Source of the DNA: a virus
Length of the DNA: 10,027 bases
UHGV virus genome: UHGV-0373029
Reading direction: 5' to 3' (one strand)
This document shows, piece after piece, positions 1-10,027 of the stretch. How positions within the stretch are numbered: position 1 is the first letter of the stretch; each line of letters opens with the position of its first letter. Position numbers and translations under genes: made by a program. The notes under the pieces are model-generated. The model searched no databases. It worked only from the letters and a program-made list of their open reading frames with translations, and was not told the origin of the DNA.

Positions 1-156
1 AACAATGAAGAGTTCCATGCACCAACTTTTGAGATTGGTATCCCACTTAACACTTTAAGTGACTTAAAACATCTCACTGCAAGTGACTTTATTGGTGGTC
101 TTAACAATTACCAGCATGCAGGAAAGATTGAAGCCCCTTTGTCAGTAGGTAAATAA
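1..156 (+). CDS. 3' end of a hypothetical protein (partial, begins upstream of window)
   Basis: Frame 1 is open from base 1 to a TAA at 154-156 (51 codons, protein-like ...EEFHAPTFEIGIPLNTLSDLKHLTASDFIGGLNNYQHAGKIEAPLSVGK*), followed directly by the hairpin at 164-187. No start visible, so truncated by the window edge. Not in the ORF track because it lacks a start. Confidence 0.35.
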   Translation, partial: NNEEFHAPTFEIGIPLNTLSDLKHLTASDFIGGLNNYQHAGKIEAPLSVGK

Positions 157-163
157 AACAAAA

Positions 164-187
164 AAGGCTCCCGTAAAAAGGAGCCTT
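164..187 (-). terminator. Intrinsic (rho-independent) terminator hairpin, strongest in minus orientation
   Basis: Perfect 8-bp GC-rich stem AAGGCTCC (164-171) / GGAGCCTT (180-187) with an 8-nt loop. On the minus strand the stem is followed by TTTTTGTTTTATTT (classic U-tract); on the plus strand the downstream tract is weak (TAAACTTTACT). Sits between convergent transcription units. Confidence 0.55.
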
Positions 188-201
188 AAACTTTACTCAC
201 C

Positions 202-666
202 ATGCAAGTTTCGGAAGGTAAACAAGAAGTGTCTATCACAACAAAATTACAGCAGTTAGATAATTATTCCAAAAGTAATTATTCAGCTATTCGTGATTTA
301 CAGTCTGATATGAGGCTGCTTCAGCTAGGGATGGAGAACCAGAAAGTCCAGTTAGAGAATGTTAAGGGTGAGAACGCAAAACTTACTAAGACTCTTGATA
401 AATTCTCTGATAGTGTGAACAATCTGGCTCAATCAGTATCAGCCCTCCAAGCTATTACTGAAAAGAACACAAAGAATACTGAAAAAGCTTTTTCTAAGTT
501 ATCTACGAACTCATCATCAATAGGTGTATCTGTCTTACTTGCGAGATATCTTGCAAGCCTAAAGAACACTTTCTCAATCATGTATTCACTTAGAAGGGAT
601 AAAATGAGTTTCCAGAAGAAGCTACCTAGATTTTTTAGAAGAATTGCTAGGATTGTAGGCATTTAA
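202..666 (+). CDS. Hypothetical protein: N-terminal coiled-coil-like region, C-terminal hydrophobic segment and basic tail
   Basis: 154-codon ORF, very unlikely by chance in AT-rich DNA. Residues 1-100 are Q/L/K/E/N-rich with heptad-like spacing, then a hydrophobic stretch IGVSVLLARYLASL and a basic tail RRDKMSFQKKLPRFFRRIARIVGI. Weak point: no Shine-Dalgarno at useful spacing before ATG 202 (AAGGAG lies 18 nt upstream, inside the hairpin). A 77-aa antisense ORF overlaps it. Confidence 0.5.
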   Translation: MQVSEGKQEVSITTKLQQLDNYSKSNYSAIRDLQSDMRLLQLGMENQKVQLENVKGENAKLTKTLDKFSDSVNNLAQSVSALQAITEKNTKNTEKAFSKLSTNSSSIGVSVLLARYLASLKNTFSIMYSLRRDKMSFQKKLPRFFRRIARIVGI

Positions 667-741
667 TCACCTCATCAGCCAAGATGGTGAGAATACCCAT
701 AAAGAATATTAACACCATCTTAACAATCAGTCAACAAGGGA

Positions 742-3111
742 TTAAGCAGTCCTTACCCAAGCCATTAACTTGTAGAACTGGTTAGTGACGCTAAATGCTG
801 AACCAGAACCAGTACCACCTGTGTTACCGCTAACTGTGTGGCTGTGAGCACCAATACCAACAGTGTGCGAGTGGTTGCCAGTTGTGTTGGTTACACCTGT
901 CCAAGTTCTTGACGCGTGGAAATCAGCAGCAGCACCGTAAGTGAAGTTAGAGCCTGTGAAGCCATGTGAAGCCTGAGAACTACCCATCTGAAACGCACCG
1001 CTCGCAGTGTAGAATGCACTGTTATCACTTCTGAACCAACCAACCACACCAGAAATTTCCATGTTACCTCTATTGTGAGCATGGTTGCCAGTCGTATTTG
1101 TCGTCTTAGTACCATAATCAAATGATGAAGTGGTAGCAGAGAAACTATGCGTGTGTGAAGGTAAGTTACCAACAGATAACGTTACAGAATCTGAACCACC
1201 AGTTGTAGCAACATCTGAACCGTTTGCTGCTGCAATTCTAATAGTTCTGCCAACACCATTATTCAGGTACGTCCAAGTTAGACCAGGAAGTGCTGTATTA
1301 GGGTTAACATTACTGTTAAACCACGTTACAATACCTACTGGATAGATTTTATTCAGGTCTGTAGAGTCACTAATTGCTTCTGCAATCTTCTGGTCAGTCT
1401 CTGCTTTAGTGTATGCACCAATTTCTGAAGGGGTTGGTTTATCTTGGTCTGTATAGATTTTAGCCCAAGCATTCTCAAAACCATACTTATCTCGTGCTGT
1501 CCTGTAAAAAATACCACCATTCTTGTAGATAAACTTAAACTGTGCAGTTGGTGTTGAGCCACCACCGATAAACATCTGATAAACTAGTTGTGATGCACCC
1601 CCAGTTTTCATTGTAACATTATACAGACCAGTTCTAGCATTCCAAGCAATACCATCCTCATCACCAACCTCTGTACCACCGCCAGAAGAGACAGCAAGCA
1701 TGTACCTAGAGTTTGCGACAGATTGCGTATAATATCTGGCATCTAAGTTAGAGAAATCAGAAGGTTGAATCTGTCCAGCTAGAGTTAGTGTTTTGTTGAT
1801 ACTTGCAGATGAGTTACCTAAAACTAACTGAGTTCCAGAAAAACTGTTATTTAGGGTTACATCATTAGTATCTGCCCCACCAACACCCACCCACCATCTT
1901 GATACATTAGCAGTGTCCATACCACGGATATACAATGGTCTGTTCTGAGTAGAGTTTTTCACAATTAGAGTTTCATCATCTGCAACAATTTTCTGTACAC
2001 CATTAAAAGTGTTTTGTGCATTAGTTCTTGCAATCGTACTTAATGTTGCTGCCGGAATATATCTAGAGTCAATGTTAGCCCAATCTGAAGGTTGAACTTG
2101 ACCACCAATTTGAACTGTTTTACTCATAGTAATGGTGTTACCTAGTGAGATTTGTGTTTTTGCTAGATAGTTATAGATGTTTACAATGTTTTCATCACCA
2201 TCGTTACCAATGTACCACTTATTAGCCCCATCTGATTTTCTTGCTTGGATATACAAAGCCGCAGTTGTGTCTACATTTTGCAGAGTGATGGCATTAGCAT
2301 TCTTCTTAATAACAAAATTAGTGAAGGTATTAGAGCCACTAAAAGTGTTATTACCAGTTAACTGTGCAAATCTCTGATTAGCAACTGTCTGAGTAAAGTA
2401 TCTAGCATCTAAGTTAGAGAAATCTGAAGGTTGGACTTGACCAGTGATTCTAAGTGACTTATTAAATGCTGCTGTTGCATCAAGGGTTAACATTGCACCA
2501 GTAGCATGATTGTACAAATATACATTAGTACTGTTTGCATTTCCCTGTCCAACATACCAAGTTTGCTGGTTATTAGAATCTCTGCCTTGAATATATGAAG
2601 CACCTGCATTGGTTGCCTTCTTAAGAGTTAACTGCTCACCATCAGTTACAATTGCTTGCCTAATGCTGAAGTTATTTGTGACAGCAAGCCTTGCATATCT
2701 TGCATCATTCTCTTCATTAGTTCTCATACCAAGTTCATTAGGGCTTGGTTTATTCAAAGTATGATAAACAGTTGCCGACCTTGTGGCATCTGCAATAGTG
2801 AGTTTAAGACCATTTGAGTTAATTTTAAAAGTCTTTAAAACATCCCCAATAGTAATCTCAGAAGAATCTGTAGGGTCAAAGATGGCCTTACCACCGTAAA
2901 GTAACTTGACAATACCTAAATCCCCAACCATAGTACTACCAGCAATCTGAACAAACCTTTCTAGTTTGAAGGAAGCTAAGAAGTCTTGATACGTCATTCT
3001 ACGGTCTTCATCACCCAGCATTTCAGGTCTTTTCTTAACTCTGATGTGTAATAGGTCTTCTGAACGAATTGTGTCGATTGAGTTTAATTGACTCAATTTG
3101 TAATCTGCCAT
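742..3111 (-). CDS. Long tail fibre protein (P2 gpH-like shaft with three ~110-aa repeats; collar-like C-terminal tip with HxH motifs)
   Basis: 789-aa ORF. Three internal repeats carry GQ(V/I)QPSD(F/W)(S/A)N(L/I)D(A/S)RY at residues 224-238, 337-351 and 447-461. C-terminal ~200 aa has a collar-like motif (YPVGIVTWFNSN...SVTLSVGNLPSHTHS), then a Gly/Ser/Thr-rich region with HTH, HAH, HSH, HSH and a ...AWVRTA end shared with the 391-aa fibre. SD-like AAGAGGA precedes the ATG. Confidence 0.9.
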   Translation of the reverse strand: MADYKLSQLNSIDTIRSEDLLHIRVKKRPEMLGDEDRRMTYQDFLASFKLERFVQIAGSTMVGDLGIVKLLYGGKAIFDPTDSSEITIGDVLKTFKINSNGLKLTIADATRSATVYHTLNKPSPNELGMRTNEENDARYARLAVTNNFSIRQAIVTDGEQLTLKKATNAGASYIQGRDSNNQQTWYVGQGNANSTNVYLYNHATGAMLTLDATAAFNKSLRITGQVQPSDFSNLDARYFTQTVANQRFAQLTGNNTFSGSNTFTNFVIKKNANAITLQNVDTTAALYIQARKSDGANKWYIGNDGDENIVNIYNYLAKTQISLGNTITMSKTVQIGGQVQPSDWANIDSRYIPAATLSTIARTNAQNTFNGVQKIVADDETLIVKNSTQNRPLYIRGMDTANVSRWWVGVGGADTNDVTLNNSFSGTQLVLGNSSASINKTLTLAGQIQPSDFSNLDARYYTQSVANSRYMLAVSSGGGTEVGDEDGIAWNARTGLYNVTMKTGGASQLVYQMFIGGGSTPTAQFKFIYKNGGIFYRTARDKYGFENAWAKIYTDQDKPTPSEIGAYTKAETDQKIAEAISDSTDLNKIYPVGIVTWFNSNVNPNTALPGLTWTYLNNGVGRTIRIAAANGSDVATTGGSDSVTLSVGNLPSHTHSFSATTSSFDYGTKTTNTTGNHAHNRGNMEISGVVGWFRSDNSAFYTASGAFQMGSSQASHGFTGSNFTYGAAADFHASRTWTGVTNTTGNHSHTVGIGAHSHTVSGNTGGTGSGSAFSVTNQFYKLMAWVRTA
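1702..2598 (-). repeat. Three in-frame tandem repeat units (~330 bp each) inside the long tail-fibre gene
   Basis: Protein repeats at residues ~172-470. At DNA level, 1733-1790 and 2399-2456 share near-identical stretches (e.g. ATCTAAGTTAGAGAAATC then GAAGGTTG); the middle copy around 2071-2115 is more diverged (CAATCTGAAGGTTGAACTTGACCACC). Confidence 0.8.
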
Positions 3112-3130
3112 TATAAATTTTCCTCTTAAA

Positions 3131-3148
3131 AGGGGCTACAAAGCCCCT
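3131..3148 (-). promoter_or_regulatory. Intergenic stem-loop between the two tail-fibre genes (possible attenuator or mRNA processing/stability element)
   Basis: In the only sizeable intergenic gap of the operon (3112-3157): 7-bp GC-rich stem AGGGGCT (3131-3137) / AGCCCCT (3142-3148), 4-nt loop. On the minus strand it is followed by TTT and then the SD AAGAGGA of the 789-aa gene. The U-tract is short, so not a confident full terminator. Confidence 0.3.
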
Positions 3149-3157
3149 GTAAAGAAA

Positions 3158-4333
3158 TTAAGCTGTTCTCTGCCATACATATACGACAAAAGATGGCTGC
3201 TCAACACTGAAAGCTTGACCACCACCAACAGAACCAGATGTTCCTGAGTGTGTATGTTCAGAGCTAGAGACAGTAACAGCACCCGTATGACTGTGTGAAC
3301 CAATATTAACAGTGTGGCTATGAGCACCAATTGCAACAGTATGGTTATGAGCACCAGATGATGCAGTTGTGCCTGAGAAGCTATGGGTGTGAGCACCTGC
3401 TAAATCAGTATACGTATTATTATTAACCCCAGCATAAGCAGATGCAGTAATAGCATCCCCCCCACTTCTATCATTACCTCTCAGTGGTACTCTATGGTTA
3501 TGGTTACCATCATTACTTGTCGTGCCGCTAAACGTGTGAGTGTGAGCACCAGCACTATTAGTCGTTTTTGTACCGTAATCAAAAGTTGATGTACTTTTTG
3601 AACCATAATCAAAACTAGAGATAGATACGCTTGCAGAGTGTGTGTGACCACCACCTGTTAAATAGATAGAGTGGGTGTGTGCTGGTAAATTATTATTTGT
3701 TAATGCTACAGTCTGAGAACCGAACGTTGAACCAACAGGTCTAGCTTCTGTATCATAACCAACAAGCGCCCTACCTTTAGAAACCAACTCCCAAGTACCT
3801 CCACAAAGCAAGTAAGTGGATGGGTTAGCAGAGTTAACAGACAGATGAATAGTCCCCACTGGATATGATGCTTGGATAGCTTTGTATAGATTATTCACTG
3901 CTCTCGCGGTAGCATATTTATCAGCATCTTCATTGTATAAGTTGGATGTTGTCCAGTTCTGAACATTACTTAACCCTACCTGTGCTTTCGTTGTATTGTG
4001 TGGGTTACTTTTGTCGTCGATATGTCTCTGAATTAAACTGTTCACTTCATCTGACGACATAATCTGTAGATTTGCTCTTGCCTCAGCAACATCTACAATG
4101 TCTGACAAGTTATTAGCTGCGACCAATTGGAGTGAGTTAATAACATTATCAAGACCAACTTGCGATTTAGTTACACCATGAGGGTTATTCCTCAAAGATG
4201 TGTGAGGTGCTAACAACTGTTCAAGCGTACATCTTTTATCCTCAACACCTTGCTTAAGATGGAAGATATCACTCAAATCAATTGGTAAGGCCGCTTGTGG
4301 CAAGGCACTAATTTGAATTTCACCTACTGCCAT
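3158..4333 (-). CDS. Tail fibre / receptor-binding protein (two phage fibre repeats, collar-like domain, His-x-His-rich tip)
   Basis: 391-aa ORF with SD AGGAG 8 nt before the ATG. Two copies of NPH(G/N)(V/T)TK(S/A)QVGL(D/S)NV (residues ~50-64 and ~110-124). Collar-like motif YPVGTIHLSVNS...LLCGGTWELV...SQTVALTNNNLPAHTHS. C-terminal 180 aa is Gly/Ser/Thr-rich with nine HxH motifs and the SFDYG(S/T)K(S/T)T motif twice, ending ...VWQRTA. Confidence 0.9.
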   Translation of the reverse strand: MAVGEIQISALPQAALPIDLSDIFHLKQGVEDKRCTLEQLLAPHTSLRNNPHGVTKSQVGLDNVINSLQLVAANNLSDIVDVAEARANLQIMSSDEVNSLIQRHIDDKSNPHNTTKAQVGLSNVQNWTTSNLYNEDADKYATARAVNNLYKAIQASYPVGTIHLSVNSANPSTYLLCGGTWELVSKGRALVGYDTEARPVGSTFGSQTVALTNNNLPAHTHSIYLTGGGHTHSASVSISSFDYGSKSTSTFDYGTKTTNSAGAHTHTFSGTTSNDGNHNHRVPLRGNDRSGGDAITASAYAGVNNNTYTDLAGAHTHSFSGTTASSGAHNHTVAIGAHSHTVNIGSHSHTGAVTVSSSEHTHSGTSGSVGGGQAFSVEQPSFVVYVWQRTA

Positions 4334-4335
4334 TA

Positions 4336-4638
4336 TTAAGCTCCTACATATTCATATGTGTAAAGGTTTCTTGTGCTTGTTGATGCAGTCCCTGTCTCAG
4401 ACTTAATTAGATTCCAGCCATTAGCCACTAAATCTGGTTGCTCAGTTGCATATGAGCGAACTTCACCAACAGTGCCGTTTACTTTATTCAGCAGGTAGTT
4501 GATAATATAGTTGAACCACTGTCTACCCATAGGCTCACCCTTTAAAAGACCTGTCTCTTGAATTTCCGGTGGTGGTAAAACTTTTAACTGATTACCATCA
4601 GTATCAACTTCATTTGTAGACCAATTTAAAACTGCCAT
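4336..4638 (-). CDS. Small tail-fibre-associated protein (resembles a fibre N-terminal attachment region; possibly a fissioned fibre N-terminus)
   Basis: 100-aa ORF; its start overlaps the stop of the upstream gene (TAATG at 4636-4640) and its stop lies 2 nt before the 391-aa fibre ATG. Sequence [27 protein letters not shown] resembles, from memory, the LPxP...TGL region at the N-terminus of P2 gpH-type fibres. Function is inferred. Confidence 0.7.
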
Positions 4639-5492
4639 TAAGAATTTCCTTCTTGTTGTGATTTATCTTTTCTGCCTTTGACAATTTGTGCAACCTCAGC
4701 CATGATTCCGTATGCACCACCTGCAACAGCTTCTTTACCAACGATGAAATATCCACTATTATTAGACCTATCTACAGTCATGTAATCATCACTCTGTGAG
4801 TTTGCTGTTCTGTCAACCTTAAAGTAACCATCAATAACACCAGCATCTGCAAGACTCCCTACTAGGTTGGACTCCAGAGAGCCACCAGTGTTATTTGTAA
4901 CAAGACCCCTGTTAGCATCAGTTACGAACCAGTTCTCTTTATCATCAACAATAGCAAGTGCTGAATCAGCAACCTCTACAGGTGTCCAAGCAGTCCCCTT
5001 TAAAGTAACATCTCTTAAGATAACAGCAGAACCAGTTGTTGTTGCAGAAATCTTTGATAGCGTGTATGCAGCATCAAGAACGTTTTTTCTGGTGTTAATA
5101 CGGATAACGATACCACCAGTCTTAGGAGTAATATGCTCAAAAATCTGAGAGAAAGTTGCACCATATAGTGTCATAATTGCTTTTTGCAAGAATGTTGGAG
5201 TAGTGTCAGAGCGTCTTAGGAAGATTTGGATATAAAGCATAGCTCTATATGTTTCATCATCAGCACCTAGAGGTCTAGGAACTTTAATCAGTGAGCCAAT
5301 ATTATCAAGTTGTTGGCCTACTGACGTCCTAATATTTCTCTCTGTGTGCATCTGCCAGCAAACATCCTCTAATGTTTGTAACTCATCAGTGATTGCTTTC
5401 AAGATACTTGTGTAGATAAACTTATCTTTAAACTGTGTTACAGTTCGTTCATCAAGTGTTTTGTAATAAACACTATCAATCTTTTCAAACAT
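4638..5492 (-). CDS. Baseplate wedge protein, gpI / Mu gp48-like (putative)
   Basis: 284-aa ORF directly after the J-like gene and before the fibre genes, which is the conserved gpI/gp48 slot. Two-nt gap from the upstream stop. Functional call is by synteny; coding status is solid. Confidence 0.8.
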
Positions 5493-5494
5493 TA

Positions 5495-6963
5495 TTACTC
5501 CTTAGTGATGGTATACTGGCTACTTTCCCAAACAGTATATTGGTCACCGTCAACAGTAATTCTTCCTGTAGTATATTGTCCGTCACTAGGTGGAACTGAT
5601 TGACTGTTTGATAATGCTACTTTGACTTCATTAATCTCAATACCTTTAATTACGTCATAGATATGTCCATAGATTCTGTTAGGGATAACATCATTACCAA
5701 CCTTAAGAGTTCTTCCGTAGGCATTAATACCTTGTACAATACTGTCTCTGATATCCTCTTCAGGGATTGTCAAGCTTTCTTCATCATATAGTGAGTAAGA
5801 CACCTTAACAAATGCGTATTTTGGTGTTGGTCTGCTGAAATAAATATTATGTGCCAAACCACCTAAATCGTGGGCTGTACCAAAAATTGAGCCATAAGCC
5901 CTAATACCAGCAGGCTTTGTATCCCAGATTGCCTGAGCTACATTATCATTTTGACCACCAACTACAACAATCTTAAAAGATTTTGGTGGAAGACCTTCTG
6001 AGTTTGTCTCTTCAGTATCATTTTCAACACCTGAAGCATCTGAGACACCTTGAACTCTTTTAACAGCAGCTACAATTGCATCCAAAGTTCCTACACCAGT
6101 AACTGCTAAGGACTCTAAATATCTCTGTCTAAGTTCTGTGTCAGTTTCTTCATTTCTACCAGTTGTTAAGTCATACCTGTTATAAATACTGTCAAGACCA
6201 TCAACAGTTGTCTCAATCTCAATAAGTGTACCAGCCAAAGCAGGGGTAGCACCCACCTCTTCAGCTACTACATCTGAAATAGTTGTAATTTTTGTAAAGG
6301 TCAGAAATGTTGTCGCAGTGACAACCATAGGGTTTGTTCTGGCAATGATATCACCCTCATCTTTATAGACTCTCAATGATGCTCCATCATTAATGACTTC
6401 TGCCTTTGCTACAATACCACCATTAATAGCTTCTGCTAATTTTGTTAGAAGTGTGGTGATTGTGTCTGATGAGGTTGGTTTATATGAGAAAATGACGTTA
6501 TCAATAATAATAACATAATCTGCATCAGTTCGTAAAGAGTTAACTTCAAGGACAGCTTCAACACAATATGATGGGGTTAGGGTAATGTTGTTAACTGGAT
6601 AAAAGATATTTCCGGCAGTACTTCTTAATCTTGTTGTTGAAGGAATGGTAGCACCAGTCGTTCCAGTAAACTCTACCTGACCTCTTGTTGCCTGAGCAAC
6701 ATATCTATATACAGCATTTAAAGCTGTAATATCATCAAGGTTAAAGCCTTCGGCCTTGTCAATTGTTCCACCGTCATAGACTTCTGATAGAATCTCATGG
6801 GTATCTGCTAAAGACCTTGCAATTGAAGCTAGGAAGAGTCCTAATTGACTATCTTCAGAAACGTCAAGGTTTGGTGAAATATCTCTAAGAAGTCTTGATT
6901 TGATATTATCAAAAATCTCCTGATATCTTAGAGTTTGTAATCCTGTTGTAGTTAGTCCTGCCA

Positions 6964-6964
<1 letters not shown>
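5495..6964 (-). CDS. Baseplate J-like protein (gpJ / Mu gp47 / T4 gp6 family, putative)
   Basis: 489-aa ORF whose start overlaps the stop of the gp25-like gene (TAATG). Size and position between the gp25-like and gpI-like genes fit the conserved W-J-I order. Not confirmed by search. Confidence 0.85.

Positions 6965-10027
<3,063 letters not shown>

Follow-up and report, generated by a model that had tools for sequence, protein, structure and literature searches.

A rearranged copy of a conserved Felixounavirus two-gene cassette between the tail fibre gene and thyA in virus genome UHGV-0373029

The interval between the tail fibre gene and the thymidylate synthase gene (thyA) of virus genome UHGV-0373029 contains two nested open reading frames (ORFs) on opposite strands. 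We analyzed it in a window of 10,027 nt, the whole stretch of DNA under study, which its database matches place with the FelixO1-like myoviruses (Felixounavirus). We find that the region is very probably a two-gene cassette, conserved in Felixounavirus, that has been damaged by a 288-nt inversion and a 94-nt deletion. Both ORFs begin in a fragment of a genuine gene and continue in antisense of the other fragment, and the overlap reads as the scar of a one-off rearrangement, not as a product of chance. The underlying cassette is already known: it is present, annotated and assigned to families in hundreds of genomes.

Inversion and deletion in the tail fibre-thyA interval

Megablast searches returned ∼290 phage records for window positions 1-3200 and ∼256 for 3200-10027, nearly all of them Felixounavirus of Escherichia, Salmonella, Shigella and Citrobacter, with a top identity of ∼99% in the baseplate region. 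In these relatives, two genes on the tail fibre strand occupy the stretch between tail fibre and thyA (annotation of Seyj1-1, ASO1B and pEP20). The first encodes a 65-residue protein (MPTILAILL...NLEKAFKGENK), the C terminus of which reads KGENK, KGDNK or KGEK. The second encodes a protein of 123 residues (MKWLEEAFKNNIGAIVVGIFSVIGMYTTMQVS...TEKNTKNTEK), labeled ‘holin’ or ‘hypothetical’ depending on the record. It overlaps the first gene by 4 nt (ATGA), and the two genes are thus likely to be translationally coupled. We found the 65-residue gene followed by the 123-residue gene on one strand in 35/35 fetched relatives of the locus (33 of them, L001-L033, judged by tblastn, and L037 and L038 by called genes).

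The window departs from this arrangement. When compared with relative L001 by blastn, positions 3-197 are collinear with 501-695, positions 198-485 correspond to 982..695 in inverted orientation, and positions 483-800 are again collinear with 1077-1394; L001 983-1076 (94 nt) is missing from the window. The same pattern, at 100% identity, is obtained with L037 and L038, an 86.6-kb ENA scaffold and a 42.7-kb Logan contig of a strain with an identical tail fibre. The body of the window is 100.000% identical to L037 over 6629 nt (blastn), and the inverted fragment matches L037 6724-7011 at 100% identity across its 288 nt (95% to L001 982..695). The strain can be traced to one sample: the exact 789-residue tail fibre protein of the window was found on L037 and L038 only (sample SAMN14445460, run SRR11412986).

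The deleted 94 nt correspond to L037 6630-6723 (AAGGGGGAGAATAAATGAAG...GGGATGTATAC, ending in GTATAC). They held the last 5 codons and the stop of the small gene, as well as the Shine-Dalgarno sequence (SD) and codons 1-27 of the second gene, which encode its transmembrane (TM) segment. The two junctions, J1 and J2, have one common breakpoint within ∼5 nt (L037 7006-7012), located beside the stop codon, with the terminator stem 10 nt away. At J2 the window reads AAACTTTACT joined to CACCATGCAAG (CTTTACT joined to CACCATGCAAG), and at J1 it reads AATACTGAAAA joined to AGCTTTTTCTAAG (ACTGAAAA joined to AGCTTTTTC). The corresponding canonical sequences are GAAAAAGCTTTT followed by AAGGGGGAG, GTATAC followed by CACCATG, and CTGAAAAG followed by TAAAGTTT.

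We could not find this arrangement elsewhere. Collinear matches to 80% or more of the query are absent from all 289 matching phage records; among the records listed, each splits, with the flanks on one strand and the middle matching as a second place. Exact junction scans gave no true match in IMG/VR (both junctions), in JGI metagenomes or in GTDB genomes (one pattern per junction). A single junction match from a metagenome (L034) has 25 nt only in common with the window and was discarded as a chance match. Neither chimeric protein is on record by exact look-up among 153 billion gene calls, and no match was obtained in E. coli complete genomes or plasmids.

An inverted segment directly downstream of tail fibre genes brings to mind a programmed switch such as the Mu G or P1 C segments (Gin/Cin), and the inverted state seen here, together with a terminator loop that is flipped among relatives, would be in line with one. 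Our repeat search of positions 100-800, however, detected no inverted repeats paired across 197/198 and 485/486; near the ends, the best candidates are misplaced, imperfect pairs of 11-17 nt. The inversion is accompanied by the 94-nt deletion and both reading frames are destroyed, the 35 fetched relatives show one orientation only, the 289 records contain no collinear match, and the annotation of relatives shows no invertase near the locus. A programmed invertase switch is contradicted by the deletion and by the lack of crossover repeats, and we put its probability at practically nil.

The deleted sequence includes a variable element of the canonical cassette. A G5-G7 homopolymer (AAGGGGGAG) lies within the last codons of the small gene and forms the SD of the 123-residue gene (L004, L008 and others). 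Its length differs among relatives, yielding small proteins of 64, 65, 73 or 74 residues (e.g. P0121 and P0122, with tails ...KGGEINEVARGGF); in the window, where it would fall at ∼486, it has been deleted.

Coding strand, expression signals and neighboring genes

The sequence-only reading had correctly described a 154-residue plus-strand ORF (202-666, ATG start) and, nested within it, a 77-residue minus-strand ORF (429-662, ATG start), and it had rightly held that the choice of coding strand matters here. The real expression signals belong to the minus-strand ORF, whose start codon is preceded by a strong ribosome-binding site (GAGGTGA; TCACCTC on the plus strand, 667-673) with a measured spacer of 4 nt. 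The plus-strand ORF is preceded by CTTTACTCACC and has no usable ribosome-binding site: there is no purine-rich SD, and the closest GGAG lies 19 nt upstream, within the terminator stem. The hairpin at 164-187 is the sole terminator-like site in the region (164-742), as had been noticed (a scan of positions 1-3200 lists one further site, 1417-1438, on the plus strand). It folds with −14.3 kcal/mol on the minus strand and −13.5 kcal/mol on the plus strand, the T-run being confined to the former. The location of the region downstream of the tail fibre gene and next to the 3′ end of thyA is likewise as described.

The plus-strand ORF had been proposed as an accessory gene, which our comparisons contradict. 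Its residues 1-95 are residues 29-123 of the canonical 123-residue protein, the start ATG at 202 being Met-29, and they match positions 29-123 of the 123-position phrog_4038 profile with an E value of 4.6e-50. The 120 homologues listed are 123-124 residues long (119 of them 123) and cover only residues 1-95, or 61-62% of the query. This part is a minus-strand gene in all relatives; here it is inverted, and its TM segment, SD and stop are gone. No homologues were found in our homologue searches for residues 96-154 of the plus-strand ORF or for residues 61-77 of the minus-strand ORF, and the counterpart of the plus-strand tail frame in relatives is only an unannotated 46-residue GTG ORF. The hydrophobic segment and basic tail previously noted in the plus-strand product are antisense of the small gene, and no 17-residue window of this product reaches a Kyte-Doolittle hydropathy of at least 1.6.

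We propose that the flipped fragment starts by accident at Met-29 and would in this way generate the 154-residue ORF; as the fragment has no stop of its own, the frame extends across the antisense strand of the small gene. With the TM segment deleted, the window copy of the 123-residue protein should not be able to act as a membrane protein. The plus-strand ORF has no promoter, SD or TM segment and runs antisense inside a unit bounded by the promoter (734..706) and the terminator (187..164), and is most likely a non-functional relic that is not expressed. A point on the other side is that the hairpin carries no T-run on the plus strand and read-through from thyA is thus conceivable; low-level, SD-independent translation of the plus-strand ORF is compatible with all our data.

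The minus-strand ORF retains promoter, SD, ATG and 60/65 codons of the small gene, and would then read into the antisense of the flipped piece, acquiring a hydrophobic tail; the 77-residue product is probably still made. In place of KGENK it carries 17 novel residues, and its hydropathy peaks at 1.68 (residues 56-72), the only 17-residue window reaching at least 1.6; the canonical protein peaks at 1.56. The two-TM, holin-like topology suggested for the 77-residue ORF does not hold, as its second hydrophobic segment (AFSVFFVFFSVIAW) occurs only in this window and is antisense of the inverted fragment. The suspicion that the richness in Phe and Leu is antisense to Lys and Glu codons is borne out for the C-terminal 17 residues.

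Variation among relatives was then used to assign the coding strand. The 123-residue gene (31 distinct copies) has 16/13/87 variable sites at codon positions 1/2/3, with 73 synonymous-only versus 20 amino acid-changing codon columns and stops in all five other frames. Synonymous-site variation, which had been named as a check, points to minus-strand coding of this gene, and the pattern indicates strong purifying selection in all relatives. For the small gene (21 distinct copies) there are 8/5/38 variable sites and 30 synonymous-only versus 10 amino acid-changing columns; its antisense frame, which corresponds to the plus-strand tail, is open in all relatives and scores 26/14 against 30/10 for the sense frame, so that counting alone does not separate the two. 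The antisense frame stays open because it is wobble-matched, which makes the synonymous test weak there. What settles the sense strand of the small gene is the conservation of SD, ATG and promoter in 20 relatives, together with distant homologues that preserve the protein motif, which an antisense artefact would not keep.

These data also bear on the idea of a true accessory gene on the plus strand at 202-666, either alone or overlapped by an antisense small membrane protein (dual coding). Both ORFs are long and open, and the near-equal synonymous counts of the small gene could be taken to favor such an arrangement. Yet residues 1-95 are encoded on the opposite strand in 35/35 fetched relatives and no record of 289 is collinear, residues 96-154 have no homologue and elsewhere only the 46-residue GTG ORF as counterpart, and the ORF comes without SD and promoter. 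The open antisense frame is the expected behavior of a wobble-matched frame, and distant homologues keep the sense-strand protein motif. Dual coding calls for conservation of both frames in relatives, in which the overlap does not exist. We regard it as very improbable indeed and retain the view that the overlap is a rearrangement scar. An annotation made from the sequence alone would here yield a spurious 154-residue ‘accessory protein’ and perhaps a two-TM ‘holin-like’ protein of 77 residues, neither of which occurs in this form in the phage group.

The coordinates of all features are collected in Table 1. The control region upstream of the small gene contains an inverted repeat (AAGATGGTG/CACCATCTT, 707-721 / 681-695) that is invariant across 20 distinct relatives and folds, as RNA, with −31.9 kcal/mol (z −6.7). 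The promoter element TTGACT-17-TAATAT is embedded in this repeat, which may act as an operator covering the −10 element; alternatively, it may form a hairpin for processing or stabilizing the 3′ end of the tail fibre transcript. A near-perfect 20-nt palindrome (CTTGCGAGATATCTTGCAAG) is found at 538-557 within the small gene; both strands consequently read ARYLAS. Most relatives have the center GATACC rather than GATATC, and the palindrome is probably incidental.

Beyond the region, the minus strand encodes the 789-residue tail fibre and then baseplate genes, and the remaining ORFs from 742 to 9324 are all intact. The tail fibre gene is mosaic with respect to relatives (megablast coverage of positions 1-3200 is only 65-82%, in 3-5 pieces) and contains internal repeats that are ∼83% identical (e.g. 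1724-1778 versus 2390-2444).

Table 1. Features of the window, with positions in the 10,027-nt stretch
Feature	Position	Strand	Basis
3′ end of the thymidylate synthase gene (thyA), last 51 codons and stop	1..155	+	Matches thymidylate synthase of relatives and phrog_160
Intrinsic terminator hairpin common to the convergent thyA and cassette units	164..187	-	T-run on minus strand only; annotated terminator on both strands in phage ASO1B
Junction J2, blunt; flank ...AAACTTTACT joined to inverted CACCATG...	197..198		blastn against L001 and L037
Inverted fragment, codons 29-123 of the gene for the 123-residue one-TM coiled-coil protein (phrog_4038)	198..485	+	blastn against L037 and L001; minus strand in all relatives
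Neo-C-terminus of minus-strand ORF, SVFFVFFSVIAWRADTD, and stop; antisense of inverted fragment	429..482	-	Canonical proteins end in KGENK/KGDNK/KGEK
Junction J1, 5-nt microhomology AAAAG/CTTTT in palindrome AAAAGCTTTT	481..487		blastn against L001 and L037
Small gene codons 1-60, PM2 gp l (P18)-like, Pfam PF26925, phrog_402	483..662	-	phrog_402 E value 1e-20; 100% identical to canonical protein over 60 residues
Read-through tail of plus-strand ORF, 59 residues, antisense to small gene	487..666	+	No conserved coding sequence
Intergenic control region; SD GAGGTGA 667-673, sigma70-like promoter TTGACT-17-TAATAT with TG at 734..706	663..741	-	Conserved in 20 distinct relatives
Tail fibre gene, gp37-like, 789 residues, adjoins cassette upstream	742..3111	-	Pfam gp37_trimer and gp37_C; phrog_4277
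Second inverted junction (fold-back) 9528/9529; perfect 125-nt inverted repeat 9404-9528 / 9903-10027 with 374-nt loop	9404..10027		Comparison with relatives

Origin of the rearranged molecule

With a modest preference, we take the rearranged molecule to be chimeric or defective, or an artefact of the contig tip; a clearly smaller share of the probability goes to a genuine heritable variant of a viable phage, and the rest to a real but minor defective sub-population. The locus has the canonical order in both assemblies of the identical strain (L037 and L038), and the inverted piece shows zero divergence from L037. The only mismatches to L037 and L038 are located at positions 100 and 135 (C in the window, A in L037), i.e. 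two in the terminal 135 nt and none in the 6.9 kb beyond position 197. The change at position 100 replaces a conserved Ile of thyA with Leu (IGGI/LNNYQ). The two positions suggest tip errors or a second haplotype.

The opposite end of the window carries a second, independent anomaly. The sequence is collinear with relatives up to 9528, skips 376 nt forward and then runs back inverted, with the repeat ending exactly at the window end. This fold-back truncates a Dit-like tail gene of 265 residues, of which a 47-residue ORF at 9324-9467 remains. Both anomalies lie within ∼500 nt of the window ends and have similar jump lengths (382 and 376 nt). Inversion-with-deletion chimeras and fold-back contig ends are a known class of artefact, exemplified by the chimeras of multiple displacement amplification. 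Like amplification or sequencing chimeras, the window junctions are inverted, involve jumps of a few hundred bases, show 0-5 nt of microhomology and are found near both tips; the right-hand junction is a perfect fold-back, as in fold-back contig-end artefacts.

Several observations speak against an artefact. Unlike independent chimeric reads, the left-hand event has two junctions with one common breakpoint and a cleanly flipped segment, which would be expected from a single cut, flip and rejoining in real DNA and is unlikely to arise from two independent chimeric reads. At 5 and 0 nt, the microhomologies are much shorter than a misjoin in a de Bruijn graph would need, and reads spanning both junctions must thus exist. 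Finally, the loop of the terminator is flipped among natural relatives, which implies that small inversions do occur in vivo at this locus.

The terminator hairpin is found in two forms, each the exact reverse complement of the other, so that the loop is flipped (window, L001-L033, L037 and L038). In the sense of the genes, the loop is of the TTTT(T)ACG type in 21 loci and reads CGTAAAAA in 14 (∼40% of relatives). This flip is a small inversion that is naturally polymorphic, and it lies at a distance of 10 nt from a breakpoint of the rearrangement.

We also considered that the inversion-deletion could be genuine and inherited in a viable phage. On this view the 123-residue ‘holin’ gene would be naturally knocked out, implying that it is not needed or does not encode the only holin, and a small gp l-like protein with a new hydrophobic tail would arise. 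The balanced geometry, the common breakpoint and microhomology typical of in vivo illegitimate recombination are compatible with it, as are the natural flips of the hairpin loop in the adjacent terminator and the intact state of the remaining ORFs from 742 to 9324. The holin assignment is moreover unproven (PMC3185647, PMC6486253) and loss of the gene might be tolerated. But the same strain, 100% identical over 6629 nt, is canonical in two assemblies, no second example was found among hundreds of genomes and several large collections, and the 123-residue gene is strongly purifying-selected in all relatives. In addition, the fold-back in the same window destroys an essential tail gene, and the contig as a whole is not a viable genome. 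On balance we judge a heritable variant unlikely, though it deserves to be kept in mind.

Should the rearrangement be real in a progeny-forming phage, which we hold to be rather improbable, it would represent a natural null allele of the universally conserved 123-residue ‘holin’ candidate. The 123-residue protein would then not be an essential holin, or the gp l-like protein with its hydrophobic tail could substitute for it, and the hairpin-proximal end of the cassette would be a hotspot of small inversions. Such a phage would provide a ready-made knock-out for testing the holin assignment. We nevertheless favor a chimeric or defective molecule, or a contig-tip artefact.

A putative lysis cassette and its relation to known systems

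The small protein belongs to the family of the PM2 gp l protein. A HMMER scan of 1.84 billion representatives identified 19 distant clusters of proteins of 58-78 residues, which have the motif LL..L.TE.MI...FFK.A..LA.KT.T..DDE in common at 31-48% identity (family alignment A1), with E26/F34/T44/D49/D50 conserved; PM2 gp l carries a conserved motif of the family as well. The label PF26925 (‘Phage_PM2_Gpl’) is precomputed on the canonical 65-residue protein of the identical strain and on 22 homologues. Our Pfam and NCBIfam scans returned nothing for the small protein, because PF26925 is absent from the Pfam copy scanned. The 65-residue protein aligns with PM2 gp l (NC_000867) without gaps over 41 residues, with a BLOSUM62 score of 80; shuffled controls scored 21.7 ± 4.1, with a maximum of 47 in 5000 (Smith-Waterman), which places the observed score ∼14 sd above. 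Similarity in sequence as well as size and lysis neighborhood thus assign the protein to PF26925.

The sequence-only reading had regarded the position behind the tail fibre genes as a slot for lysis-type genes, and the family supports this: three of five distant homologues are located 2 nt downstream of endolysin genes (Peptidase_M15_4, Peptidase_M15_3 and Phage_lysozyme types). A fourth lies behind a gene for a 1020-residue protein and overlaps by 4 nt the gene after it, which encodes an 82-residue one-TM protein, a pairing as in Felix; the fifth lies in an SU10-like structural module. The canonical 123-residue protein has one TM segment (residues 12-28, hydropathy 1.91), followed by ∼95 residues that match coiled-coil families only, and weakly (Pfam/NCBIfam). 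From these sequence features we infer that the canonical cassette is a small lysis module, in which a sigma70-like promoter of its own on the minus strand would drive a 65-residue PM2 gp l/P18-like factor and a 123-residue one-TM holin candidate, up to a terminator common with thyA.

Other findings count against a lysis assignment. BLASTP of the 65-residue protein against PM2 gp l gave no alignment, and the evidence for homology consists of the Smith-Waterman shuffle test, the family alignment and the precomputed Pfam label. The canonical 123-residue protein matches none of the holin models in Pfam or NCBIfam at E ≤ 10, and its holin label comes from annotation only. Felix O1 gp79 is one of five holin candidates (PMC3185647), for phage Meda it is stated that ‘A holin was not identified’ (PMC6486253), and the record of phage Mushroom labels the 123-residue protein hypothetical. 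phrog_4038 is annotated as ‘unknown function’. In phage vB_SflM_004, gp79 is called holin, and the spanins are found elsewhere (gp28/gp29; PMC7925395). The holin status in the literature is a prediction throughout (PMC3185647, PMC4392139, PMC6486253, PMC7925395). We also considered the 123-residue protein as an i-spanin and rejected this, given that spanins are annotated elsewhere in vB_SflM_004 and that its matches to PHROG spanins amount to coiled-coil noise (E 0.03-0.17).

In the records inspected, the small gene behind the Felixounavirus tail fibres is labeled ‘hypothetical protein’; it can now be tied to the PM2 gp l/P18 family. The link to PM2 gp l and the endolysin neighbors strengthen the case that it forms a lysis module with its one-TM neighbor, in a group of phages for which experiments have yet to identify the holin.

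Among known systems, the closest is the gp78/gp79-type cassette of Felixounavirus (Seyj1-1 vBSeyj11_84/_83, Mushroom gp57/gp56, wV8 gp086; phrog_402 and phrog_4038), to which the window is alike in position, promoter region, SD and terminator. The two have 60/65 small-gene codons and codons 29-123 of the second gene in common, at 95-100% nucleotide identity. The window differs in that the 3′ three-quarters of the second gene is inverted, with its TM-encoding 5′ end and SD deleted, and in the novel 17-residue tail of the small gene; this arrangement is present in no other sequence found.

The second comparison is with the lysis proteins P17 and P18 of the Corticovirus PM2, which we take to be gp k and gp l, respectively. 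In the passage of PMC9502842 that treats them (citing Krupovic et al. 2007), which does not map the protein names to genes, P17 is a one-TM holin and P18 is needed for disruption of the outer membrane. Like PM2 gp l, the Felix small protein carries the motif ..TE..I...F....A..LA.KT.T..DDE.. and is paired with a short one-TM protein having a helical C-terminal part. Unlike in PM2, the l-like gene comes first, and the partner is larger (123 residues compared with 53 for gp k) and has no sequence similarity to gp k (BLASTP of the 123-residue protein against gp k gave no alignment). The N terminus of the Felix small protein is also more hydrophobic than that of PM2 gp l (1.56 versus 1.16), and Felix is a tailed myovirus with an endolysin of its own and annotated spanins elsewhere (PMC7925395).

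The third is the class III holin T of phage T4, which has one TM segment in an N-in/C-out topology. The canonical 123-residue protein is shorter than T, its periplasmic part is a predicted coiled coil, and it matches no holin family in Pfam or NCBIfam; the window copy, as the 154-residue ORF, has lost the single TM segment characteristic of the class. Like T, however, the canonical protein combines one N-terminal TM segment with a larger C-terminal soluble domain, and its gene comes right behind the tail fibre genes, apart from the endolysin, as the T gene comes right behind tail fibre genes 37-38 (PMC3185647; PMC4392139).

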